Positions 5,836 through 56,712 are shown, counted from the first letter of the stretch. The stretch is DNA of 64,000 bases from an uncultured Holophagae bacterium (GCA_963797055.1 CAWCOD010000002.1:491598-555597); one strand, 5' to 3'. The notes: generated by a model from the letters alone, not told the origin. Made by a program: numbers and translations.

Positions 5836-5951
5836 GGCGCGTCGAAAATGACACGTCCTGCCTGCTCCGTCGCGCCAGTTCTCCCTTCGCGCTCCCCGAG
5901 GTTACTCGCGGCCGGTGGCCGCGCCCACTGCCGCATCGGGTGGGTGGGCGG

Positions 5952-5984
5952 CAACTTTCAACTTTCGACTTTTCAACTTCCAAC
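5952..5984. repeat. 7-mer array (CAACTTT-like) after GGGTGGGTGGGCGG
   Basis: Box at 5938..5951. The array ends 15 nt before ATG 6000. Confidence 0.9.
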
Positions 5985-5999
5985 TCGAGAGGGGAGATC

Positions 6000-7667
6000 A
6001 TGAAAACGAAACACGTCGTGTTGTTGGCGGCGATTATTGTGTGCTGCTCAGGATTGGCGATGGCCCAGACCGAGTGGGTCGAATACCCGGACAACCCGGT
6101 CCTTGGGCCGGGTGATCCGGGGGCGTGGGACTCAGCTTACCGGGAGGTCCTCAACGTCGTGTCCGACGGCTCGATGTATCACCTGTACTTCTGGGGCACC
6201 GATGACGAGGACAACATCCCGGCCGCCATCGGCCATGCCACCTCATCAGACGGCGTGACGTGGACCATTGATCCCAACAACCCGGTATTGACCACGGGGG
6301 CCGAGGGGGAGTGGGACGAAGGCGGCATCGTTAATTTCGCAGTGATTTACGACAACGCCGAGTTCCACGTGTGGTACGCAGGGTGGATCGACGACTGGAA
6401 CTCTGGCGTCGGGTATGCCACCTCGCCCGACGGCAGCACGTGGACGAAGTACTCGGGGAACCCGGTCCTCGGCCACGGGTCTGCCGGGTCGTTCGATGAG
6501 AGCGGCGTTTTCCCTCGCAGCGTGATTTTCGACGGGGGAACCTACCGGATGTGGTACACGGGAGTGGACGTGCCCGATTTCTTCTTTACGATCGGTTACG
6601 CCGAATCCCCCGACGGGATCTCGTGGACAAAGCACCCGGGCCCGGTCCTCGGACCGGGATCGGGTTGGGACTCCTGGGACGTGTGGGGTCCGTCGGTCAT
6701 CTTTGACGGGTCGATCTACCACATGTGGTACACGGGATCCGAGCTTGTCGAGGGCTGGGTGTTCCCCGGGGGAATCGGCTACGCCGCCTCGGCGGACGGC
6801 ATCGAGTGGACGAAGTACCCGGACAATCCGGTGTTCGTTTTAGACGAGAGGCTAGTGAGTTATGGGAGTGTCGTGTTTGACGGCTCGGCCTACCGGATGT
6901 GGTATATGGATGGGGTCGTCGAGGGACCACCGGCGGAGATCGCGTACGCCACCTCCGACTGTTGCGCCCCCCCGATTTTCCGGCAGACCATCCCAGCGGC
7001 GGCGCTGGCATCGGGCGCTCAGGGATCCTTCTACCAGACCGATTTGGACCTCAACAACGCCGGTGACCAGCCGGTGGAGTACGAGTTCTGGTGGCTGCCC
7101 CGGGGCGAGACCAACACCGAGCCGACCAGGTCGGAGACCTTCAGCCTCGGTGCGGGCATGAGCGTGCGCTACGCCAATGTGCTGTCCGAGGTCTTCGGCC
7201 TTGAGCCCAACTCCTTCGGGGCGCTGTCGATTCTGTCGTCGAGCCCGGATCTGCTGGCCATGAGCCGGACCTACAACAACCCCGAGGGCGAGGACGCGGG
7301 CACCTTCGGCCAGGCCATTCCGGCGGTGCCACCGAGCGACTTCATCCAGACCGGCGAGCGACGGAGAATCCTCTTCGCCAGCGAGCACGAGGACCTGCGG
7401 TTCAACGTGGGCTGCCAGAGCGGCAGCGGCGAAGGGACCATGATCGTCAACCTCGAGCTCTTCGATGACGAGGGCACGTCGTTGGAGCAGACCATGATGA
7501 TCCTCAGGGCCTGGGGCAACGACCAGCTCAACCGGATCTTCCAGGACTACATGCCGGTGAACGGCTACGTCGATGTCTGGACCACCTTGCAGAACAAGAG
7601 CTTCTACTGCTACGGATCGGTGCTCGACAACGTGACCAGTGATCCGACGACGGTGCTGCCGCAGTGA
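6000..7667 (+). CDS. Secreted GH43/GH130-like beta-propeller protein with conserved C-terminal domain of unknown function (paralog 1)
   Basis: ORF 5712..7667. ATG 6000 follows RBS GAGAGGGGAG and gives signal peptide [23 protein letters not shown]. Five to six blade repeats (DG..YHMWY ... IGYA.S.DG..WTK...NPVL). The C-terminal ~230 aa ([24 protein letters not shown] ... [16 protein letters not shown]) is shared with 8048..9717 and 18796..20439. Confidence 0.85.
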
Positions 7668-8000: not shown

Positions 8001-8032
8001 CAACTTTCAACTGTCAACTTTCAACTTCCAAC
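8001..8032. repeat. 7-mer array (CAACTTT-like) in the paralog-2 leader
   Basis: CAACTTTCAACTGTCAACTTTCAACTTCCAAC; homologous to 5952..5984. Confidence 0.9.
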
Positions 8033-8047: not shown

Positions 8048-9717
8048 ATGAACGCGACACGAGTGACGTTATTGGCGGTGATTCTGTGTGCTCATTGTCG
8101 CGGTGGCGTCGGCGCAGACCGAGTGGGTTGAAAATCCGGTCGATCCGGTGCTCGGGACGGGTGAGCCGGGGTCCTGGGACTACATCCGACTGCCGGCTGA
8201 GGTCGTCCTGGTTGACGGCACCTACCACCTCTTCTTCGGCGGTCAGCCGGAGGGTGACCGATCGCCTATTCGACGCTCTTCAGTTGGGGCACGCGACGTC
8301 GTCGGATGGTGTGACCTGGGAGATCGACCCGGCCAACCCGGTTCTGACTCTTGGAGGGGCGGGTGAATGGGACTCCGCGACCCTCCTGCCGGGAGCCATC
8401 GTCCACGATGGGAACGGATTTCACCTGTGGTACCACGGGAGCAACCCGACGGAGATACCTACCTCAGCGCGGTCGGTTATGCGACTTCGCCGGATGGCTC
8501 AAACTGGGTGAAACACGACGGCAACCCGATCATGGGCGAGGGACTGCCCGGGACCTACGACGACGGAGGTGTGCTGCCTCGCACGGTGATCGTCCGAGAC
8601 GGACTCTACCAGATGTGGTACACCGCGATTCATCGCTCGGACAACGAGTATGATTGGCGAATCGGCTACGCCGTCTCGGACGACGGTCTGGACTGGACCC
8701 GGCACCCTGTCCCGGTGCTGGAACCAGGTGTCGGGTGGGAGCAACTGATCGTCTTTGCTCCTCATGTGAGATTCGAGAGGTCGCAGTACCACATGTGGTA
8801 TAGCGGCTCCAATGGCGGGACCTTCAATATCGGATATGCTGTCTCGTCAGACGGCATCGAGTGGACCAGGTATTGGGACAACCCCGTCGTGTCCCGAGAC
8901 CCCTCGATTGCGGCCGAGCTCCCGTTGATTGTCCTCAACCCGGACACCCAGACATACGAGATGTGGTACCGAAACCTGGTCAATCTCAGCATCTACCGAG
9001 CCGTGTCGAACTGCTGTGCCACGGTGCATCTGTTGATCATTCCGGCCGCCGCAGTGGCCTCGGGCGCTCAAGGGTGCCTTCTACCAGACCGACGTGGACC
9101 TCAACAACGCCGGTGAGCAGCCGGTGGAGTACGAGTTTCTGTGGTTGCCCAGGGGCGAGACCAACACCGACCCGATGACCTCGGAGCCCTTCAGCCTCGG
9201 CGCTGGCATGAGCGTTCGGTACGCCAACGTGTTGTCCGAGGTCTTCGGTCTCGAGCCCAACGCCTTCGGTGCCGTCGGCATTCTTGTCCTCGAGCCCGGA
9301 TCTTCTGGCCATGAGCCGGACCTACAACATACCGAGGGTGACGGATCTGCCGGGACCTTCGGCCAGGCGATTCCGGCCATCCCACCGAGCGACTTCATCC
9401 AGACCGGAGAGCGGCGGCGGATCCTGTTCGCCAGCGAGAACGAGGATTTGCGGTTCAACGTGGGCTGTCAGAGCGGCGGTGACGGAACCATGGTGGTCAA
9501 CCTCGAGCTCTTCGACCACGAGGGCAGCTCGTTGGGGACAGAGATGATGATCCTCAGGGCCTGGGGCAACGACCAGATGAATCGGATCTTCCAGGACTAC
9601 ATGCCGGTGAACGGCTACGTGGACGTGTGGACCACAGACGCCGACAGAAGCTTCTACTGCTACGGCTCGGTGCTGGACAACGTGACCAGCGACCCGACGA
9701 CGATTTTGCCGCAGTGA
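8048..9717 (+). pseudogene. Frameshifted paralog 2 of the secreted beta-propeller / C-terminal-domain protein
   Basis: Homologous sequence is spread over ORFs 7639..8511, 8088..8366, 8367..9116 and 9094..9717. ATG 8048 follows the same leader and RBS as paralog 1. Frame changes near 8090, 8265, 8455 and 9080, plus a compensating pair near 9285 and 9335. Confidence 0.8.
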
Positions 9718-16067: not shown

Positions 16068-18134
16068 ATGTCAGTCAATAAAACATTTCGCATGGCAATT
16101 GCCGCAATTATGATCGTCGGCGGATTTTCCGGTGGGGACCTCCTCGCAGCGTCCCCGGCCGAGCGAATCTGGTCCCAGGCGCCGGCTTCATCCCTCGATC
16201 CCACAGCTGACAGGGCGATCATCCCGTTGAGATTTCAACCGGTCATCCTGGACCGTGCCGCCTTGGATGCCGAGTTGCGTCGAGCGCCAAACGAGATGGC
16301 TGAGAATGCCCAGGCCCTTGCCGTGGTGGTGCCTCTGCCCACCCCCGATGGTGGAATCGCGTACTTCAGGGTGGTGTCGTCGCCGATCATGGAGCCCGAG
16401 TTGGCCGCCCGGTATCCCCAGATTCAGACCTTCCGCGGCCAGGGGATCGACGATCCCAGCGCCACGGTGAGGATGGACCGCACCCTTCACGGATTCCACG
16501 CCATGGTGATGTCCTCCTCCGGGAGCTATTTTGTAGACCCCTACGCCAGGGGAGATGTGGACACCCACATCGTCTACTCCAGGTCCGATCTGGTGAATCC
16601 CCACGCAGGGGTCTTCAGCTGCGGCGTACCCTCTGACCAGGAGGGTGGCGGTGGCGAGGGAACCACTGAGGGCATGGAACTCTCAGGCGCATCGCTGAGG
16701 AGCTACCGGCTTGCCGTGGCGGCCACCGGGGAGTACACCGCCTTCCATGGTGGGACCGTTCCGGACGGCATGGCGGCCATCGTGACCGCGATCAACCGGG
16801 TCAACCAGATCTACGAGCGCGAAGTGGCGATTCGCATGATGTTGGTGGCCAACAATGACCTCGTGGTCTATACCAACGGTGCGAGCGATCCCTACTCCAA
16901 CTCCAACGGATACGCCATGCTCGGCCAGAATCAGAGCAATCTGGACGCCGTCATCGGCTCCGCCAACTACGACATGGGCCACGTCTTCTCCACCGGTGGT
17001 GGTGGCATCGCAAATCTTCGCGCGGTCTGCAACAACAGCTACAAGGCGCAGGGAGTCACCGGATTGCCGAGCCCCGTCGGCGATCCCTTCTACGTGGATT
17101 ATGTAGCCCACGAGATGGGCCACCAGTGGGGCGCCAACCACACCTTCAATGGTAATGAAGGCGGCGTGTGGTGGCGGCAACCGCAACCCGTCCACGGCCT
17201 ACGAGCCGGGCAGCGGATCAACCATCATGGCCTATGCCGGCCTCTGCGGCATCCCACAACACCCAGTACTTCAGCGACGACTATTTCCACGGAGCCAGTT
17301 TCTCGGAAATCGTCTCCTACAGTACGCGCGGGCGTCGGCAACAGCTGCGCTGCGGAGACAGCCACCGGCAACTCGCCGCCGCTCGTTGAGGCGGGTGACG
17401 CATTCACCATCCCGGTGTCGACCCCATTCGCGCTCTGCGGTTCGGCGGTGGACCCAGATGCCGATGTCCTGACCTACGGCTGGGAGGAGTTTGATCTCGG
17501 GCCCGCGGGTCATCCCAACACGCCGAGCGGAAACGCGCCGATCTTCAGGAGCTTCGACCCGGTGAACTCGCCAGAGCGGCTCTTTCCGAAGGCGTCCGAC
17601 ATCGTCAACAACGTGCAGACAAAGGGTGAAATCCTGCCGAGCTATGCCCGGAACCTGAACTTCCGATTGACCGCGCGGGACAACTTGTCGGGTGGCGGTG
17701 GGGTCGACTTCGACACCACCAGTCTCGCGGTCTCCGATGCCGGCGGCCCGTTCGTGGTGACCTCGCCGGACAGCGCCGTGACCTGGACCGGCGGCACCAC
17801 CCAAGTCGTGAGTTGGGACGTGGCCGGCACCGACCTGGCGCCCATCAGCTGTGACAGCGTGGATATCGCCCTGTCGCTGGACGGCGGCTGGAACTTCCCG
17901 CTGGTCCTGCTCAGCGACACTCCGAATGACGGCTCTCAGGCGGTGATGATGCCCGACCTCCAATCCGCCACGAGTCGCGTCCGGGTGAGCTGCCACGGCA
18001 ATGTCTTCTTCGATATCTCCAATACCAACTTCACGTTGACCGGCTCGGGCGCCATGTTTTTTCCGAGGGCACCGATGGCTGCGGCGGCGGCTGGGGGGCG
18101 TGGACCTCGGTCGTTCAGTAGGGCAAGGCAGTAG
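16068..18134 (+). CDS. Secreted reprolysin-like (M12B-type) zinc metalloprotease with an internally frame-scrambled segment
   Basis: Signal-like N-terminus [19 protein letters not shown]. Zinc motif [13 protein letters not shown]. Between about 17160 and 17335 the family-like sequence moves through the other two frames ([28 protein letters not shown] in ORF 17149; [21 protein letters not shown] in ORF 17168) and then returns. A further possible shift lies at the T6 run near 18055. Confidence 0.8.
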
Positions 18135-18196: not shown

Positions 18197-18247
18197 TTAA
18201 GTTGAAAGTTGAACGTTAAACGTTGAACGTTCCCACCCTCCCTCCCG
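18197..18247. repeat. 7-mer array (GTTGAAC/GTTAAAC) plus CCCACCCTCCCTCCCGG
   Basis: TTAAGTTGAAAGTTGAACGTTAAACGTTGAACGTT followed by the C-tract box. Confidence 0.85.
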
Positions 18248-18640: not shown

Positions 18641-18795
18641 CGATGAGATTCCGCTGATGCTGTCATCCTGAGCGAGCGAAGCGACGGAGGATGTGAGTTG
18701 GAGGATCGATCCGCAGGAAAACCGCAGCCTAACCTCAGGCAACTCGGCTTCCGGGGCGCCACCTTTTAGACGAGAGAGTCCAAAAGGAGGAAGTC

Positions 18796-20439
18796 ATGGG
18801 TGGAAGACGAGTTGTGGTGGTGTTGGCGATTGGGGTGTGCTGTGCGGGAATCGCAATGGGGCAAACGGACTGGGTCGACAACCCGGACAATCCGGTCATC
18901 GAGTCGGGTGAGTCCGGATCGTGGAATGCAGGCGGGAACTGGGGCACGGCCGCCTTCTTTGACGGATCGACCTACCACATGTGGTTCACCGGGGAGGACC
19001 AAAACGGGTATTGGTCCGGCGTCGGCCACGCCACCTCACCCGATGGCGTCGAATGGACCATGGATCCGGCCAACCCCGTAGTTTCCGCCGGCGAATCCGG
19101 GGAGTGGGACGACTCCTACGTTATTTCGGGGGCGGTGATCCACGACGGGACCCAGTTCCACATGTGGTACTCGGGCTCCGGCGGTGCCGAGGAATCGCTC
19201 GGCTACGCCACTTCGCCCGACGGCAGTATGTGGACCAAACACGACGGCAATCCTGTCATGGATGCTGGGGCGTCCGGCACGTGGGACGACTTATGGGTCG
19301 GGCCCTCCTCGGTCATTGCAGACGGCGAGAACCTCCAGATGTGGTATTGGGGCTCCAACGGGTCTGTCGGGAGTATCGGGTATGCCGAATCGCCGGACGG
19401 GATCGATTGGACCAAGCGCCAGGAGCCGGTCCTCGAACCGCAGGAAATCCCCGGGGGGGCCTGGGACGCGCAGACTCTCTACGGCCCGCTCGTCATTTTC
19501 AACCCACTCAACCCACCCATGTACCAGATGTGGTACGGAGGGCACGATTCGGACAACCCCCTTGTCGGCTATGCCTTCTCGAGCGACGGCATCGAGTGGA
19601 CGCGACACCGTGACAATCCGGTCATCGAAGCCGGCCATCCCGTTGTTCTCTTTGACGGGTCCGACTATCACATGTGGTACGCCTACAAAGATGGTGGCTG
19701 GCAAATGTCCTACGCCACCTCTGACTGCTGCCCCGGTGTGGCTGGTCTGACGCACATGCAGACCATCCCGGCTGCGGCGGTGGCCTCGGGCGCCGAGGGG
19801 GCCTTCTACCAGACCGACGTAGACCTCAACAACCCCGGTGAGCAGCCGACGGAGTACAAGTTCATGTGGCTTCCCCGCGGTGAAACCAACTCCGACCCCA
19901 TGGCGTCGGAGTCCTTCAGTCTCGGCGCCGGCATGAGCGTGCGCTATGCCAATGTGCTGTCCGAGGTCTTCGGGCTCGAGCCCAACTCCCTCGGGGCGTT
20001 GTCCATTCTGTCATCGAGCCCCGATCTGCTGGCCATGAGCAGGACCTACAACAGTCCCGAGGGCGAGGAGGCGGGCACCTTTGGCCAGGCCATTCCAGCG
20101 GTTGCGCCCGTTGATTTCATTACAACCGATGAGAGGCGGAGGATTCTCTTCGCCAGCGAAAACGATGATCTGCGTTTCAACGTGGGCTGCCAAAACGGCG
20201 GAGATCTCAGCATGGTGGTCAACCTCGAGCTCTTCGACTCCGAGGGCTCGTCGTTGGAAAGCACAATCATGCTCCTTAGGGCTTGGAGCAACGATCAGTT
20301 CAACCGTGTGTTTGGTGATTACCAGCCGGTCAACGGCTATGTCGATGTGTGGACCACAAACGCTGGCAAGAGCTTCTATTGCTACGGATCGGTGCTGGAC
20401 AACGTGACCAGCGACCCGACGACGATTTTGCCGCAATGA
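18796..20439 (+). CDS. Secreted GH43/GH130-like beta-propeller protein with conserved C-terminal domain (paralog 3)
   Basis: 547-aa ORF after RBS AAAGGAGGAAG. Signal peptide MGGRRVVVVLAIGVCCAGIAMGQ. Same blade motif (STYHMWFTG, VGHATSPDGVEWT). The C-terminal domain is nearly identical in parts to paralog 1 ([39 protein letters not shown]). Confidence 0.9.
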   Translation: MGGRRVVVVLAIGVCCAGIAMGQTDWVDNPDNPVIESGESGSWNAGGNWGTAAFFDGSTYHMWFTGEDQNGYWSGVGHATSPDGVEWTMDPANPVVSAGESGEWDDSYVISGAVIHDGTQFHMWYSGSGGAEESLGYATSPDGSMWTKHDGNPVMDAGASGTWDDLWVGPSSVIADGENLQMWYWGSNGSVGSIGYAESPDGIDWTKRQEPVLEPQEIPGGAWDAQTLYGPLVIFNPLNPPMYQMWYGGHDSDNPLVGYAFSSDGIEWTRHRDNPVIEAGHPVVLFDGSDYHMWYAYKDGGWQMSYATSDCCPGVAGLTHMQTIPAAAVASGAEGAFYQTDVDLNNPGEQPTEYKFMWLPRGETNSDPMASESFSLGAGMSVRYANVLSEVFGLEPNSLGALSILSSSPDLLAMSRTYNSPEGEEAGTFGQAIPAVAPVDFITTDERRRILFASENDDLRFNVGCQNGGDLSMVVNLELFDSEGSSLESTIMLLRAWSNDQFNRVFGDYQPVNGYVDVWTTNAGKSFYCYGSVLDNVTSDPTTILPQ

Positions 20440-20610
20440 TAGCGAGCGAGCAGGGAGCAGGAGGCAGGGAACAGCGCTCACAAACCCGGTGAGATATGCG
20501 GGCTAGAGGGCCGACCCCGGGAGATAAACCCTCGGGCCGAATCGAGCCTTCGGAAAGCGGCCGTGACGGCGGCACTCTAACGCCGCGCCTGGTAGGTGGC
20601 TGGAGGTCCC

Positions 20611-23600
20611 ATGGCCAGCGTGATCCAATTCCGCACACGACGTTCGCAGGTCGGCGTGGCAACAACGCGCCGGGTTGTGGGTCGTGCGGCGACGCCATAC
20701 AATGATCCCAGAGTGTCCGTTCAACTTGCGACGATCATCCAGAACGGTGAGCCGTTTCTCATCGGAGAATGGCTTTTGGAGCCGATGCTCAACCGGCTGA
20801 CGCGGGGCGAGACCACGGTCCAGCTCGAGCTCAAGGCCATGGACGTGCTGCTTTGCCTCGCCGAGCATGCCGGGGAGGTGATGGGCAAGCACGATCTCCT
20901 CGATGAGGTGTGGCAGACCGAGTTCGTCTCCGACAACACCCTGCAGCGGAGGATCGCTGAGCTGAGAGAGGCTTTCGGCGACAACGCCTCAAGGCCCTGC
21001 TACATCGAGACCATTCGCAAGCGCGGCTACCGCCTGATTGCCGAGGTGGTTGCGGTGACCACGGCCGGCGAGATCGCGATGGCGATCCCCGAGACACCCG
21101 TCCCTCCTGACGAGGAGCGCAACCCGTACCCGGGTCTGGCTGCCTTCACCGAGATCGACGCCGACCGATTCTTCGGCCGGACCATCGAGGTCGCGGCTCT
21201 GTGGCGCAAAATCACCTCTCGGCGCCTGCTGGCCGTGATCGGTCCTTCGGGCATCGGCAAGAGCTCACTGCTGCGCGCCGGAGTCGCCTCCCGAGCCCCG
21301 CCCGGCTGGCGGGTGGTGGTCTTCACCCCGGGCGAAGTGCCGGTGCTGTCGCTGGCACGGGCTTTAGCTCCCGACCACTCCGGCGATCCGGACGCTGTGG
21401 CGCGACTGGTGGGTTTCACCGATCCGGACACCGCTTTGGCCGTAATCTCCAGGTGGCGGGGGAACTTCCAGCAAGCGGTTCTCGTGGTCGACCAGTTCGA
21501 GGAGCTATTCACTCTCAGCACGCCCGAAGTGCAGACGGGCTTCATCGAACTGCTGCGACGGCTGGTGGACGCTGCCGACGTGCACGTTGTGCTGGTTATG
21601 CGGGACGACTTCGTCTATCAATGCCAGCCGTTCTCGCAGATCACACCGATTTTCAAAGACCTGACACCGCTGGGCCCACCCAGCGGCGAGGCTTTGCGGC
21701 GGGCCCTCAGGGAGCCGGCGGCGCGGCAGCTCTACCGGTTCGAAAGCGAACGCCTGGTGGACAGAATGGTCGCAGAAGTCGAGGACGAGCGGGGTGCCCT
21801 GCCCATGCTCGCCTTTGCCGTGCATCGACTGTGGGAGGAGCGGGATTGCGAGCAGCGGGTCCTCACGGAGGAGGCGTACAACCGCATCGGCGGTGTGTCC
21901 GGCGCCCTGGCCCTTCATGCCGAATCGACCCTTGACCGGATCGGCGCGGAGCGGTTGCCCATCGTACGCGAGGTCTTCCGCAATCTGGTCACCGCAGAGG
22001 GTACCCGGGCGGTCCGCGTGGTGGGCGAACTTCTGTCCGTCTTCGATGTGGGTGACCGTGAATCCGCCGCCGAGACCCTGGGTGAACTCATCGACGCCCG
22101 TCTCTTGACCTCCTTTGAGGGGGAAACGGATGAGATTGTTGACGTTCGGCAGAGCAACCGGGTCGAGATCATCCACGAATCGCTGTTGCGTGCATGGCCG
22201 AGACTGGTGCGCTGGCAAACCCGGGACGCAGACGCCGCGCAGCTCCGGGACCAACTTCGCCAGGCGGCGCGTGTATGGCACGAACACGGACGCCACGAAG
22301 ACAGGTTGTGGATCGGAACCGCGTTTCGAGAGTTCCAGCTGTGGAGGGAGAGCTACCCGGGTGGTTTGACCGAGACCGAAGAAGGCTTTTCCGAAGCGAT
22401 GAAATTACACGCGAACCGCCGCAGACGCAGACGCCGACTCGCGGCCACGGCGTCATTCGCCATTCTACTGGTTGTTCTCGCTGTCGTCGGCCTGTCCCGT
22501 CAGCGGGCGGTCACCGAGGCCAGACGTGCGGAAGCGGCCAAGCTGTTGGCGATTGGCCAGAGCGAGATCGACATCTATCCGACCGCCGCCCTGGCGTGGG
22601 CCATGGCCAGTCTCGGGCTGGCTGACACCCAGGAGGGGCGATTGCTGGCGATGCGCGCCATACAAAAAGGTCCTCCGGTATCGGTGTGTCCTCGAGATTC
22701 AATTCGGTTGTTGGGTATCGTAGATCTCGCCATCAGCCCGAACGGCACGTGGATCGTCGGCAGCGGAGATCGCCTGGAACTCAGACGCCGTGACGGCAGT
22801 GAGCCGATCCTTGTGTCCCACCCAGAAGAGGCGATGGAGTCTGGCCGGACGTACGATGAGGTTCTGGCGGGATTCATTTCCGACGCGGTCTTGCTTACCG
22901 AAAAACGAGGGGAACACTACTGGTGGGCGATACCTCAGGTGGAGCGACCCATGCAGCTCCGTCGCGATAGGGGATCACTTGGCGAGGTACAGAGCGACGG
23001 GTACTTCAGTTTCTCGAAAGCCGGTGATCAGGTCTCAATCCATCGGTGGCCTTCGGACGGGGGCCCCGGGCGATTGGTGGGGTCCATGGATCCATGGGGT
23101 CCAAGTGATATTGACGACACAGGGTCAATGATGGCGTACGCCAGAGAAAATCTCCTTTTCGTGCGGTCACTGGAAGATTGGGACCGTCCGCCGCTGCGGA
23201 TCGGGGAGCACGAACACTCCGTGCAGTTCGTGGCTTTTCATCCTGACGGAGACAACCTGGCTGTCGCGGACAATTCAGGCGCGGTGAGGCTTTGGTCCAT
23301 ATCCAGCGGCCCGCCACAGCTGTTGCGCTCGATCACTCTCGGTGGTGTCCCTCACGGAACACTCGTTTACAGCCCCACGGGAAGGTGGCTCGCCGGGGCA
23401 GACAACGAAAACGGAACACAGCTGTTCGACCTGGCGGCACCCAATGGATCAGCCCCTCTGATGTTGAGAAGGTCGGACGAATCGGCGGTGGTGTCTCTCG
23501 ACTTTCACCCCGATGAGAACTGGTTGGTCACCGCGAATTTCAACAGTTTTGGGTTCTGGCCTTTAACTCACAGATTCGCCACGGTTCTGGACCAAGCCGG

Positions 23601-24684
23601 TGGCCGCGTGCAGGACGTGAAGTTCACGCCGAATGGCGAGTGGCTGGTGACGGTGACTGCGGAGAGCCGAGGATCACGACGAGCCGGCCAGCTTTGGGTC
23701 TGGCCGATGAAGGAACACAACAACCGGAAACCCAGGGTACTGTTTGAATCTCCCTCGCTCTACGGAGCCGATCTCGGCATCGACCCCATCGGCAGGTACG
23801 TCGCGATAGCGACCCAAGAGGGATCGGTGTATCTCGTTCCGCTCGACGGGGGTCCAGCGCGTGAATTTCGCGGGCCCGGGTGGGCGGTAGGAAATCACCT
23901 CCTGGCGTTCAGCCCTGATGGTCGGCGGTTCGCTGCCGTGGGCAGGCGTTTTGGCGGTAAGTTCACCATTTGGGTATGGGATGTGGATTCCGACGAGGGG
24001 CGGGCTGTTGGCACCGTCGAGGGCTCGTCGGCTTCACTCAGTTTTGTGGATGACAACCGGATCCGCTGGACCGGAAACAGCATTGAAACCGAGGGCAGAG
24101 GCGGGGGCGAAAAGATCTTCGATATCGAGAAAGGCCATGTCGAGGTCGTTGCGGAGGGGGGAACCGAACTCAGGCGCGCCGTGAGTTCGGCAGGCGATTT
24201 TGTCGTCACGACTGACTGGGTGAGCGGGACCTTCGGCCGGCCAAAGAACGAGATCAACTGGAAGAACCTCGTGAGCGGTGAAACGCGTCGGATCCGATCA
24301 CATGGCGAAAGTCCCTACGCGATCGCGCTCGATCCGACTGATCGATTGATCGTCTCGGGGAGTTTCGACGACGATCTGATACGGGTTGGTCCGGTGTCCG
24401 GCGGCGCACCCCATTTGCTATTTGGCCACGACGACCGGGTCCTGTCAGTGGCAGTCTCCCCGGATGGGCGGTGGATTGCATCGGCCAGCAACGACTCTAC
24501 GGTTCGACTCTGGCCGATGCCCGACATGTCGAAACCGCCGCTCCACACCCTCCCCCTTAACGAACTCATCACAACGCTGAAGGCGCTCACCAATCTCCGC
24601 GTTGTCCGGGACGAAGAAACCTCCACCGGCTGGAAACTCGACGTCGGACCTTTCCCCGGCTGGGAGACGGTTCCGGAGTGGTAG
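20611..24684 (+). CDS. Membrane-anchored wHTH (OmpR/CadC-type) / P-loop STAND-like NTPase / WD40 beta-propeller regulator
   Basis: ORF 20596..24684; ATG 20611 follows GGAGG. Winged helix (VQLELKAMDVLLCLAEHAGEVMGKHDLLDEVW ... YIETIRKRGYRLI). Walker A VIGPSGIGKSSLLRAG and Walker B VLVVDQFEE. One TM helix after an RRRRRR run (FAILLVVLAVVGL). C-terminal WD40 repeats (HDDRVLSVAVSPDGRWIASASNDSTVRLW). Confidence 0.9.
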   Translation: MASVIQFRTRRSQVGVATTRRVVGRAATPYNDPRVSVQLATIIQNGEPFLIGEWLLEPMLNRLTRGETTVQLELKAMDVLLCLAEHAGEVMGKHDLLDEVWQTEFVSDNTLQRRIAELREAFGDNASRPCYIETIRKRGYRLIAEVVAVTTAGEIAMAIPETPVPPDEERNPYPGLAAFTEIDADRFFGRTIEVAALWRKITSRRLLAVIGPSGIGKSSLLRAGVASRAPPGWRVVVFTPGEVPVLSLARALAPDHSGDPDAVARLVGFTDPDTALAVISRWRGNFQQAVLVVDQFEELFTLSTPEVQTGFIELLRRLVDAADVHVVLVMRDDFVYQCQPFSQITPIFKDLTPLGPPSGEALRRALREPAARQLYRFESERLVDRMVAEVEDERGALPMLAFAVHRLWEERDCEQRVLTEEAYNRIGGVSGALALHAESTLDRIGAERLPIVREVFRNLVTAEGTRAVRVVGELLSVFDVGDRESAAETLGELIDARLLTSFEGETDEIVDVRQSNRVEIIHESLLRAWPRLVRWQTRDADAAQLRDQLRQAARVWHEHGRHEDRLWIGTAFREFQLWRESYPGGLTETEEGFSEAMKLHANRRRRRRRLAATASFAILLVVLAVVGLSRQRAVTEARRAEAAKLLAIGQSEIDIYPTAALAWAMASLGLADTQEGRLLAMRAIQKGPPVSVCPRDSIRLLGIVDLAISPNGTWIVGSGDRLELRRRDGSEPILVSHPEEAMESGRTYDEVLAGFISDAVLLTEKRGEHYWWAIPQVERPMQLRRDRGSLGEVQSDGYFSFSKAGDQVSIHRWPSDGGPGRLVGSMDPWGPSDIDDTGSMMAYARENLLFVRSLEDWDRPPLRIGEHEHSVQFVAFHPDGDNLAVADNSGAVRLWSISSGPPQLLRSITLGGVPHGTLVYSPTGRWLAGADNENGTQLFDLAAPNGSAPLMLRRSDESAVVSLDFHPDENWLVTANFNSFGFWPLTHRFATVLDQAGGRVQDVKFTPNGEWLVTVTAESRGSRRAGQLWVWPMKEHNNRKPRVLFESPSLYGADLGIDPIGRYVAIATQEGSVYLVPLDGGPAREFRGPGWAVGNHLLAFSPDGRRFAAVGRRFGGKFTIWVWDVDSDEGRAVGTVEGSSASLSFVDDNRIRWTGNSIETEGRGGGEKIFDIEKGHVEVVAEGGTELRRAVSSAGDFVVTTDWVSGTFGRPKNEINWKNLVSGETRRIRSHGESPYAIALDPTDRLIVSGSFDDDLIRVGPVSGGAPHLLFGHDDRVLSVAVSPDGRWIASASNDSTVRLWPMPDMSKPPLHTLPLNELITTLKALTNLRVVRDEETSTGWKLDVGPFPGWETVPEW

Positions 24685-35043: not shown

Positions 35044-35137
35044 GGAACGGTTGAACGTTCAACGTTCTCCTCCGCCCACCCGCCCAATTGCAGATTGCAG
35101 ATTGAAAATTGCAGATTCCGTCCCCCCACCCGCCCGG
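35044..35137. repeat. Composite: GAACGTT array / CCGCCCACCCGCCC / ATTGCAG array / CCCCCCACCCGCCCGG
   Basis: Two different 7-mer arrays, each followed by a C-tract box, immediately upstream of xerD. Confidence 0.9.
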
Positions 35138-46953: not shown

Positions 46954-47049
46954 CCCGGGCGGGTGGAATCCGCAATTCACAATTCGCAATTCGCAATTCG
47001 CAATTCGAAATACGTATTACGTAATACGAAATGGTCGGGTGGGCGGGGG
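46954..47049. repeat. CCCGGGCGGGTGG / CAATTCG x5 and TACGTAA arrays / GGTCGGGTGGGCGGGGG
   Basis: Lies between the sulfatase-like gene and tmk, with a G-tract box on each side. Confidence 0.9.
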
Positions 47050-49624: not shown

Positions 49625-49737
49625 GCGGGCGGGCGGGGAATCTGCAATCTGCAATCTGCAATCTGTAATCTATCGCAATTCGAAATGGGCGGGTGGGGGT
49701 TCTCAAAGCCCTATAGCCCGGGCGGGTGGGTGGCGGC
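49625..49737. repeat. GCGGGCGGGCGGGG / AATCTGC x4 array / GGGCGGGTGGGGG / CCCGGGCGGGTGGGTGGCGG
   Basis: Three G-tract boxes and one array, ending 30 nt before the SSS transporter start. Confidence 0.9.
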
Positions 49738-51318: not shown

Positions 51319-51365
51319 CCGGGTGGGCGGGCGGAACGTTGAACGTGCAACGTTCAACGTGTAAC
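51319..51365. repeat. CCGGGTGGGCGGGCGG plus GAACGTT/CAACGTG array
   Basis: Box, then AACGTTGAACGTGCAACGTTCAACGTGTAAC. A related ACGTTAA array is at 51243..51290. Confidence 0.9.
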
Positions 51366-54733: not shown

Positions 54734-54800
54734 CCCCCCCGCCCGCCCGACCAATTGCAGATTGCAGATTGCGAATTGCGGATTCCGCCCACCCGCCCGG
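54734..54800. repeat. CCCCCCCGCCCGCCCG / ATTGCAG array / CCGCCCACCCGCCCGG
   Basis: Same array type and box arrangement as 35072..35137. Starts at the stop codon of the radical SAM gene. Confidence 0.9.
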
Positions 54801-56435: not shown

Positions 56436-56645
56436 TCAGCGCGCCCCTCTCCCCGCAGCGCTCCCCGAGGTTGCCACCCTCGCATTCCGATCTCCATGTC
56501 GGTGCCAGGCACCGCCGCAGATGTAGCGACCTCGTGCTCCGATTCGATTTCGACGGTGCCTGGCACCGGCCCGCGCGTATTGGATGCGCTCCAGAACAGC
56601 ACGCCCGCCCATCGCGCCCTCCTCCGATCCGGGTGGGCGGGGGAA
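56436..56645 (-). repeat. Dispersed repeat family A, copy 5 (inverted)
   Basis: Near-identical to 49340..49530 over about 190 nt. Arms at 56501..56513 and 56555..56567. Confidence 0.9.
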
Positions 56646-56712
56646 TCTGCAATCTGCAATCTGCAATCTGCAATCTGCAATCTGCAATTCGCAATTCGCA
56701 ATTCGTAATTCG
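56629..56712. repeat. CCGGGTGGGCGGGGG plus the longest array (AATCTGC x5, then AATTCGC/AATTCGT x4)
   Basis: Box at 56629..56643; about 68 nt of 7-mer repeats, ending about 18 nt from the stop of the EAL gene. Confidence 0.92.

Follow-up and report, generated by a model that had tools for sequence, protein, structure and literature searches.

What does a bacterial protein do that has a DNA-binding domain at one end, an NTPase in the middle and a long array of beta-propeller repeats at the other, with an apparent membrane anchor between the NTPase and the repeats? The question is raised by a gene at 20611..24684 (+ strand) of a 64,000-nt stretch of DNA from an uncultured Holophagae bacterium (GCA_963797055.1 CAWCOD010000002.1:491598-555597), the whole of which is referred to below as the window. 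Its open reading frame (ORF), matches in Pfam and NCBIfam and a homologue search define a protein of 1357 aa with the architecture winged helix-turn-helix (wHTH), nSTAND1, transmembrane (TM) helix and WD40, hereafter the STAND protein. We consider it likely, at a probability of about 60%, that this is a ToxR/CadC-type one-component activator, integrated in the membrane and fitted with a STAND oligomerisation engine, and not an immune STAND. Its probable role is to switch on the neighbouring gene for a secreted protein resembling sugar hydrolases. The literature searched contains no description of this architecture or of its operator, and the family is abundant in databases and functionally undescribed.

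Architecture and topology of the STAND protein

An earlier, sequence-only reading of the window had proposed a 1357-aa ORF with the domain order wHTH, P-loop NTPase, poly-Arg TM segment and WD40, and both proposals are borne out. The frame is unbroken from 20596 (GTG) or 20611 (ATG) to 24684 on the + strand, a GGAGG Shine-Dalgarno sequence lies a few bases 5' of the ATG at 20611, and Pfam matches together with hydropathy give the same order of domains. Trans_reg_C matches aa 68-142 (E 1.4e-17) within a CadC/ToxR-type wHTH at aa 46-148 (20746..21054, +), which we delimited from Trans_reg_C, NCBIfam CadC and CadC/ToxR matches in the PDB. In NCBIfam the N-terminus matches CadC best (E 1.6e-22, well short of the equivalog cut-off); in the PDB, the sequences nearest to the wHTH are those of CadC (5ju7, E 1.9e-21) and ToxR (E 8e-12), with response regulators all ranking lower.

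The NTPase, previously described as STAND-like, belongs by profile to the nSTAND1 clade (PF20703) and is neither NACHT nor NB-ARC: aa 172-563 (21124..22299, +) cover positions 1-378 of the 379 in the profile with an E value of 4.9e-98 and a score of 329.7 bits, against a curated cut-off of 27.1. Its motifs are intact and not degenerate, with Walker A (GPSGIGKSS, including K217) at aa 211-219 (nt 21241-21267, +) and Walker B (VLVVDQFEE) at aa 290-298 (nt 21478-21504, +), and residues G211, S213, G214, G216, K217, S219, D294, E297 and E298 are invariant in an alignment of 25 homologues. WD40 and other beta-propeller models cover aa ~860-1305 (WD40 E 3.6e-32). Pfam detected no toxin-type effector, effector-associated domain (EAD) or Death-like adaptor in the protein, and BTAD, NB-ARC and TPR are absent among its listed Pfam matches.

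Only one segment is strongly hydrophobic, namely aa 610-628 (LAATASFAILLVVLAVVGL; 19 aa with a hydropathy of 2.64), and it directly follows RRRRRRR at aa 603-609. This poly-Arg stop-transfer and single TM helix together occupy 22417..22494 (+), a placement based on hydropathy, homologues and an AlphaFold2 (AF2) model. The poly-Arg run, an uncharged helix of ~21 residues and the sequence LWRRSVxETRRAEAAKLLALG recur in nearly all homologues that reach this region, and the poly-Arg/TM module is common to wHTH-type homologues and to those in which a Ser/Thr kinase replaces the wHTH (kinase-type, see below). Across 100 homologues, Lys and Arg together average 7.2 in the 15 residues of the N-terminal flank and 4.0 in the C-terminal flank, where Asp and Glu average 2.1, and the N-terminal flank is the richer in Lys and Arg in 98 of the 100. 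By the positive-inside rule, this bias favours a predicted topology with the N-terminus inside and the WD40 part outside. Moreover, since the wHTH must reach DNA, the NTPase needs nucleotide and there is a single hydrophobic segment (a search of the protein for a second one that could bring the chain back to the cytoplasm found none), the WD40 part would lie outside the cytoplasm, in agreement with the placement first suggested for it.

This predicted extracytoplasmic part (aa ~629-1357, 22495..24681, +) was characterised with AF2 and Foldseek. In the AF2 model of aa 600-1357, built from 30 sequences (pLDDT 88.2, pTM 0.87), the TM and juxtamembrane regions form one continuous helix of 52 residues, followed by two short helices; a helical juxtamembrane stalk (aa ~629-686) leads to ~14 WD40 blades arranged as a tandem double propeller (aa ~691-1302) and to a C-terminal alpha/beta subdomain. 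The top Foldseek matches are likewise tandem double WD40 propellers (2ymu, Pwp2, Apaf-1 and Aip1). Identity to homologues is 26-45% in the ectodomain versus 49-66% in the cytoplasmic part. After the last blade comes a conserved tail of ~55 aa (aa ~1303-1357, 24517-24681), modelled as a helix and two strands, whose consensus PMPD..KPPLHTLP..EL...L..LTNLR.VRD..S.TGWK.E.GPFPGW..VP.W. is common to wHTH-type and kinase-type proteins. Periplasmic WD40 arrays have already been predicted on single-pass Ser/Thr kinases of Planctomycetota (PMC11032199).

The adjacent propeller gene and its predicted operator

Directly upstream of the STAND gene and on the same strand lies its predicted target (18796..20439, +), whose stop codon precedes the STAND-gene ATG by 171 nt, one more than the 170 nt first reported. 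Translation, AF2, Foldseek and synteny together describe a secreted protein of 547 aa with a signal-peptide-like N-terminus, a five-bladed propeller (aa ~25-318) and a beta-sandwich C-terminal domain (CTD; AF2 pLDDT 87). Foldseek groups it with enzymes of the glycoside hydrolase (GH) families GH32, GH43, GH130 and GH117, while sequence searches return weak GH130 and GH32 matches only. We found at least 1755 homologues, some of them named 'GH43/DUF377 family glycosyl hydrolase' by JGI.

The sequence-only reading hinged on synteny between STAND and propeller genes, and this synteny is conserved: a propeller-family gene lies directly upstream on the same strand, at gaps of ~50-370 nt, in 18 of the 36 wHTH-type nSTAND1 genes with enough upstream sequence, versus none of 37 kinase-type genes (0/37). 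In three further wHTH-type loci the propeller gene sits just downstream. Elsewhere the gene upstream of a wHTH-type STAND gene encodes a different secreted protein, such as DUF1028, a small HExxH protein or an M14 peptidase; further products encoded there are a TonB-dependent-receptor-like outer membrane protein and an SGL/NHL propeller with the same CTD.

When the 300-nt regions preceding the propeller genes of 13 homologous cassettes were aligned, a predicted operator of three 11-bp-phased units emerged, located in the window at 18711..18743 (+) and defined by the cassette alignment, a position weight matrix (PWM) and the covariation of units 1 and 2. Unit 1 (CCGCAG, 18711-18716, +) and unit 2 (CCGCAG, 18722-18727, +) are likely wHTH sites, and unit 3 (CCTCAG, 18733-18738, +) overlaps the -35 position. 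The cassette consensus is CCGCAs-N5-CCGCAs-N5-CyTCAk with A/T-rich spacers, followed by a CCACaTTg box and then a Shine-Dalgarno sequence, and the operator is fixed at 83-88 nt before the ATG in all 13 cassettes. In the window the box reads CCACcTT(g) (18758..18767, +) and stands at the same offset as in the other cassette promoters; its -10-like core CACCTT (18760-18765) lies 17 nt after the -35 position, and we infer that the box is the -10 element. A small palindrome, CCCACnTTGTGGG (18758-18770), overlaps this box and has equivalents in five other loci (L007, L008, L014, L031 and L002); it might serve as a second protein-binding site or form a hairpin in the leader RNA.

The 33-nt PWM was then scanned over both strands of 2.6 Mb, comprising the window and 78 loci. 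Within the window, on either strand, the operator is the single match of at least 12 bits, with a score of 30.2 bits. Outside the set used to train the matrix, ~18 sites reach at least 25 bits, all of them on the strand of the STAND gene and all in wHTH-type loci, with none at this threshold in the kinase-type loci scanned. A downstream ORF with a Shine-Dalgarno sequence could be called for 34 of the 43 tabulated matches, in most cases with 83-88 nt between motif and ATG, and a crude test gave signal-peptide-like starts for 30 of these 34. The genes that follow the motif encode propeller-family proteins with or without the CTD, DUF1028, an unrelated CTD-bearing protein and small secreted proteins. 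The interval 20437-20615 between the propeller and STAND genes is no more structured than its shuffles (z +1.6), a consensus scan of it found no terminator or sigma-70 promoter, and an Rfam scan of the whole window returned nothing.

The recognition helix of the STAND protein, S107-R119 (SDNTLQRRIAELR, SDNTL-Q-R-R-IAELR; aa 107-119, +), was located by HMMER alignment to CadC, in which N109 is equivalent to His66, Q112 to Thr69, R113 to Gln70 and R119 to Arg76, once the numbering of PMC5430869, which differs by three residues from that of the 5ju7 chain, is taken into account. In CadC, base-specific contacts are made by His66, Gln70 and Lys95 only, and these contacts differ between CadC, PhoB and PmrA (PMC5430869). 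Scored over 19 cassettes, Arg or Lys at the R113 position goes with GCA in both of the first two units in 9/9 cases, and G, S, N, T or V with GCA in both units in 0/10, unit 2 reading GAA, GGG, GGA or TGA in the latter. At position 112, Q pairs with CCGCAG and T with CCGCAC. On a neighbour-joining tree of the nucleotide-binding oligomerisation domain (NOD) only, helix and repeat state switch separately at least three times, and the correlation is therefore not a single inherited event. Across the aligned sequences, the conserved predicted operator at the adjacent promoter thus covaries with the recognition helix of the neighbouring protein.

The target gene is the third member of its family in the window. 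Paralogue 1 (6000-7667, +) is 59% identical, and paralogue 2 (8088-9717, +) matches in two reading frames and is therefore frameshifted or an assembly error. Within the window neither of the two has a CCGCAs operator or an adjoining STAND gene: the motif is missing from the 300 nt upstream of paralogue 1, and the lack of any second PWM match in the window means that paralogue 2 is also without an operator. Consequently, the proposal that the STAND protein is a candidate sensor-regulator of this secreted family stands for paralogue 3, on the strength of synteny, operator and covariation, and falls for paralogues 1 and 2; with the operator at paralogue 3 alone, the protein would not regulate the whole family within the window. 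A block of ~70 nt (GAATCGGCGTGCCTGGCA...) is common to the upstream regions of paralogues 1 and 3.

The CTD of the target protein (~230 aa; aa ~320-547, 19750-20436) has no Pfam model and is better conserved than the propeller, being 53-79% identical across proteins with differing N-terminal domains. Its partners include the GH-like propeller, an SGL/NHL propeller, FGE-sulfatase, LVIVD, PA and S9 peptidase/esterase domains, and its invariant residues include C465, C529-Y-G-S, D535-N, T538 and D540-P-T-T. These proteins might thus have in common a module for sorting, anchoring or recognition.

A proposed mechanism and its rivals

In the mechanism that we propose, the wHTH and NTPase would be cytoplasmic, the TM helix would run on as a rigid juxtamembrane helix, and the outer double propeller would act as the sensor. 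A periplasmic or envelope ligand, which might be a polysaccharide fragment, the secreted partner or its product, would bind or cluster the propellers, and clustering at the membrane would lead NTP-bound NOD modules to oligomerise; unlike in soluble STANDs, the sensor could not clamp the NOD directly, because the membrane lies between them. The arrayed wHTHs would then bind head-to-tail on the CCGCAs repeats at 18711-18743, which are phased at 11 bp and adjoin the -35 position, and the bound array would activate the weak promoter of the adjacent gene for the secreted GH-like propeller and CTD. Passages of work on CadC target search and on transertion describe membrane-anchored regulators as often acting on genes near their own locus, and the tight adjacency of the STAND and propeller genes therefore fits. 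A more tentative extension, which we think possible with the odds against it, is that the protein represents a transmembrane class of STAND with sensor and NOD on opposite sides of the membrane, in which clustering replaces the clamp and the output is swappable between a wHTH and a kinase acting on an ECF (extracytoplasmic function) sigma factor; here the ligand may be the partner's CTD or its reaction product, which would close a feedback loop on secreted-enzyme activity.

Several points weigh against an activator of this kind. There is no precedent for signalling across the membrane to a STAND NOD, any account of it is speculative, and all relatives come from uncultured metagenome-assembled genomes (MAGs). 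The covariation rests on 19 related loci and does not extend to the third repeat unit, which may be a -35 element rather than a wHTH site. The propeller gene is not upstream in half of the wHTH-type loci, the window's two other paralogues lack the operator, and in several homologous cassettes a terminator-like hairpin with a T-run lies between the two genes, so that the pair is not a simple operon. Additionally, the occurrence of many paralogues per genome together with a fast-diverging sensor domain would also fit an immune role, and the context in which the nSTAND1 clade was defined, in the passages concerned of PMC8195603, is that of predicted conflict systems.

These last points belong to a reading of the STAND protein as an nSTAND1 sensor of conflict or immunity, of the kind described by Kaur et al., in which the WD40 part detects an invader or non-self at the envelope, the wHTH triggers defence and the propeller/CTD proteins are the effectors. 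We regard this as unlikely, even if the counter-invader systems predicted in the same passages (PMC8195603), the presence of nSTAND1 in sensors diversified by diversity-generating retroelements (PMC10907252), the number of paralogues, the far faster divergence of the ectodomain (26-45% against 49-66% identity) and the shuffling of the partner CTD among many different secreted enzymes all speak for it. In PADLOC, neither the STAND protein nor the propeller protein nor the reprolysin-like neighbour matched a defence system, the best result for the STAND protein being a 17-bit P-loop match to mad8 (E 8e-4), and the immediate neighbours in the window give no sign of a mobile element or defence island. 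The protein has no toxin-type effector, EAD or Death-like adaptor domain; the outputs seen in the family, a DNA-binding domain or a kinase with an ECF sigma factor, are typical of housekeeping signal transduction; and the predicted targets resemble glycoside hydrolases and peptidases. The known anti-phage STANDs (Avs, bNACHT) were rejected as an identification, there being no PADLOC system match beyond the P-loop and the N-terminus being a wHTH with no toxic effector.

It is about equally improbable, in our view, that the STAND and secreted genes are merely co-regulated neighbours, another OmpR-family regulator (which could also bind such repeats) being the one that occupies the operator, the STAND protein having other targets or regulating itself, and the synteny reflecting block duplication. 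The operator also precedes genes several kb from a STAND gene and genes of unrelated families, which this explanation accommodates readily, as it does the terminator-like hairpins between the two genes in some cassettes and the lack of a propeller gene in half of the wHTH-type loci. However, the repeats track the Gln70-equivalent residue of the adjacent protein through at least three independent switches, strong matches to the motif occur in wHTH-type loci only and without exception on the STAND-gene strand, and the window's single match stands at the adjacent promoter.

Canonical STAND autoinhibition, as in MalT and Apaf-1, needs contact between sensor and NOD, and this requirement would be satisfied if the hydrophobic segment were not a membrane span, or if proteolysis released the regulatory part. 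The protein would then work as a soluble regulator like MalT or AfsR, either whole or as its N-terminal 600 aa, and WD40 repeats that had not been released would clamp the NOD. Activation of CadC by proteolytic cleavage is reported in a passage of PMC11484849. We nevertheless hold a soluble form to be the least probable of these explanations: the uncharged helix of ~21 residues and the seven arginines are conserved in ~100 homologues with a consistent charge asymmetry, the AF2 helix is long, exposed and not packed on the propellers, and no second hydrophobic segment was found to return the chain to the cytoplasm.

Related systems, family members and other features of the window

As an activator of the ToxR/CadC type, the STAND protein shares with these regulators an N-terminal cytoplasmic OmpR-type wHTH, a single TM helix and a C-terminal extracytoplasmic sensor (in its predicted topology), as well as a predicted target promoter that adjoins the regulator gene. 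It differs in that ~450 aa, including an nSTAND1 module of ~400 aa with a helical arm, separate the wHTH from the membrane, whereas CadC and ToxR have a short linker; in its tandem WD40 double propeller of ~700 aa, in place of a small periplasmic domain; and in its predicted operator of 11-bp direct repeats, which is Pho-box-like. Because a whole NTPase sits between wHTH and membrane, it fails one defining feature of the ToxR/CadC group.

With MalT, the AfsR/SARP-NB-ARC-TPR regulators and GutR the protein has in common the combination of DNA-binding domain, STAND NTPase and C-terminal repeat sensor, and presumably NTP-dependent oligomerisation into an assembly that binds DNA at multiple sites. 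In those proteins, however, the NTPase is of NB-ARC or MalT type and not nSTAND1, and they are soluble with a sensor that touches the NOD, whereas here the membrane would separate the two. AfsR/SARP proteins combine a SARP wHTH with BTAD, whereas the wHTH here is CadC-like and BTAD is missing; membership of that group is ruled out by the nSTAND1 module, the WD40 repeats and the TM helix, together with the lack of BTAD, NB-ARC and TPR. The sequence-only reading had seen ToxR/CadC and AfsR/SARP logic joined in this protein, and we retain the first half on account of the CadC/ToxR wHTH, while the second holds by analogy only, there being no BTAD or NB-ARC.

The DNA-binding geometry has a parallel in the Pho box, in which direct repeats in tandem, phased at 11 bp and separated by an A/T-rich spacer, lie at, or replace, the -35 element of a weak promoter. 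Our predicted operator has this geometry, as expected for head-to-tail binding by OmpR-family wHTHs; it differs in its CCGCAs core, and its presumed regulator is not a phosphorylated response regulator as PhoB is. The PhoB-DNA complex served as a reference in the CadC paper (PMC5430869).

The resemblance to STANDs of conflict systems that had been noted earlier, with a DNA-binding module in place of a toxin-type effector, is upheld. The nSTAND1 conflict proteins treated in passages of Kaur, Iyer, Burroughs and Aravind (2021, PMC8195603) share with the STAND protein the clade (PF20703) and the plan of output, NOD and repeats, and carry an EAD, Death-like adaptor, TIR, caspase or trypsin domain where our protein has a wHTH. 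A TM helix, an external sensor and an operator with a secreted-enzyme partner are not described in those passages.

On the outer side of the membrane, the closest parallels are kinases. PknD of M. tuberculosis is a single-pass Ser/Thr kinase with an extracytoplasmic propeller. In the Planctomycetota kinases with a TM helix and WD40 repeats, a cytoplasmic output is likewise joined through one TM helix to an external beta-propeller array, the output being a kinase where direct DNA binding is predicted here (PMC11032199). The text of that paper does not contain the word NTPase, and it appears not to discuss a STAND between kinase and membrane.

Large proteins of this kind number in the thousands in Acidobacteriota and neighbouring phyla, often with several per genome, and these bacteria dominate soils and sediments, although very little is known of how they regulate their genes. 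If the STAND protein is indeed a membrane-integrated activator, the ToxR/CadC paradigm would gain an NTP-driven oligomerisation engine, a STAND NTPase would work across a membrane, challenging the model in which the sensor clamps the NOD, and it would be explained how these bacteria tie the making of secreted hydrolases to a cue from outside. Should the transmembrane-STAND extension hold, it would describe a widespread and hitherto undescribed system of envelope signalling in Acidobacteriota. The prediction is falsifiable, in that it specifies a 33-bp operator, a specificity residue (R113, equivalent to Gln70 of CadC) and a defined target gene.

At least 3237 proteins, among 8000 candidates scored, match the N-terminal 730 aa of the STAND protein at E <= 1e-10. 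These homologues belong mainly to Acidobacteriota, and source databases label family members by domain alone, e.g. 'winged helix-turn-helix domain-containing protein/WD40 repeat protein'. When one genome per species was scanned, 413 relatives emerged, from Holophagae, Thermoanaerobaculia, Vicinamibacteria, Sulfomarinibacteraceae, Methylomirabilota, Gemmatimonadota and others; the nearest are 66-76% identical and come from uncultured Holophagae. Many paralogues occur per genome, a single Holophagae MAG contributing at least 5 of the 80 best loci.

The kinase-type proteins form a large sister group in which a Ser/Thr kinase replaces the wHTH, giving Pkinase-nSTAND1-TM-WD40 proteins of ~1500 aa. 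In 13 loci (L035, L040, L047, L050, L056, L058, L061, L064, L068, L069, L071, L074 and L078) the kinase-type gene lies directly downstream of an ECF-sigma-like gene (PF07638, Sigma70_r4_2), and these loci look like a version of the sensor chassis in which a kinase signals to an ECF sigma factor. With a wHTH as output in one version and a kinase beside an ECF sigma factor in the other, both versions therefore point to transcription as the output. Some of the kinase/ECF-sigma loci then carry a gene for a CarboxypepD_reg/OMP_b-brl_4 outer-membrane protein.

A further wHTH-nSTAND1 clade, with recognition helix TEKTLTRAVAELR or ADNTLTHAINEIR, has a small secreted HExxH gene upstream of the STAND gene (L016, L020, L024 and L026). 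The upstream regions of this clade are without CCGCAs repeats and contain a conserved sequence of their own, ...CGCCCTAACTTCTTTCC...GACCGTGTCGGCATGGGACAGGC, ~100-200 nt upstream of the HExxH genes (5500-5660 in L016), a pattern in the aligned sequences that suggests clade-specific operators.

Two genes upstream of the STAND gene, the window encodes a secreted reprolysin-like (M12B) metallopeptidase (16068-18134, +). Its translation is of low complexity and odd at aa 365-430, just past the HExxH region, and the gene may contain a local frameshift. It is not conserved beside STAND genes in other loci; indeed, across the 78 loci none of the SMC, PNP_UDP, MBL, reprolysin, DHO_dh-like and PFOR neighbours is conserved in that position.

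Intergenic regions of the window also contain tandem repeats of period 7 in 3-6 copies (e.g. AATCTGC, CAACTTT, ATTGCAG and AATTCGC), located at 963-993, 5952-5985, 8001-8032, 18201-18231, 35087-35117, 46967-47011, 49639-49671, 54754-54784, 56644-56712 and elsewhere. A G-tract box, GGGTGGGTGGGCGG, often lies directly beside them; with up to 2 mismatches allowed it occurs 20 times, where 2.2 occurrences are expected, among others at 5938-5951, 35072-35085, 51321-51334 and 54785-54798. The G-tract looks G-quadruplex-like, and the composite of repeat and G-box, which is also present in related Holophagae loci, may be a genome-wide intergenic element.

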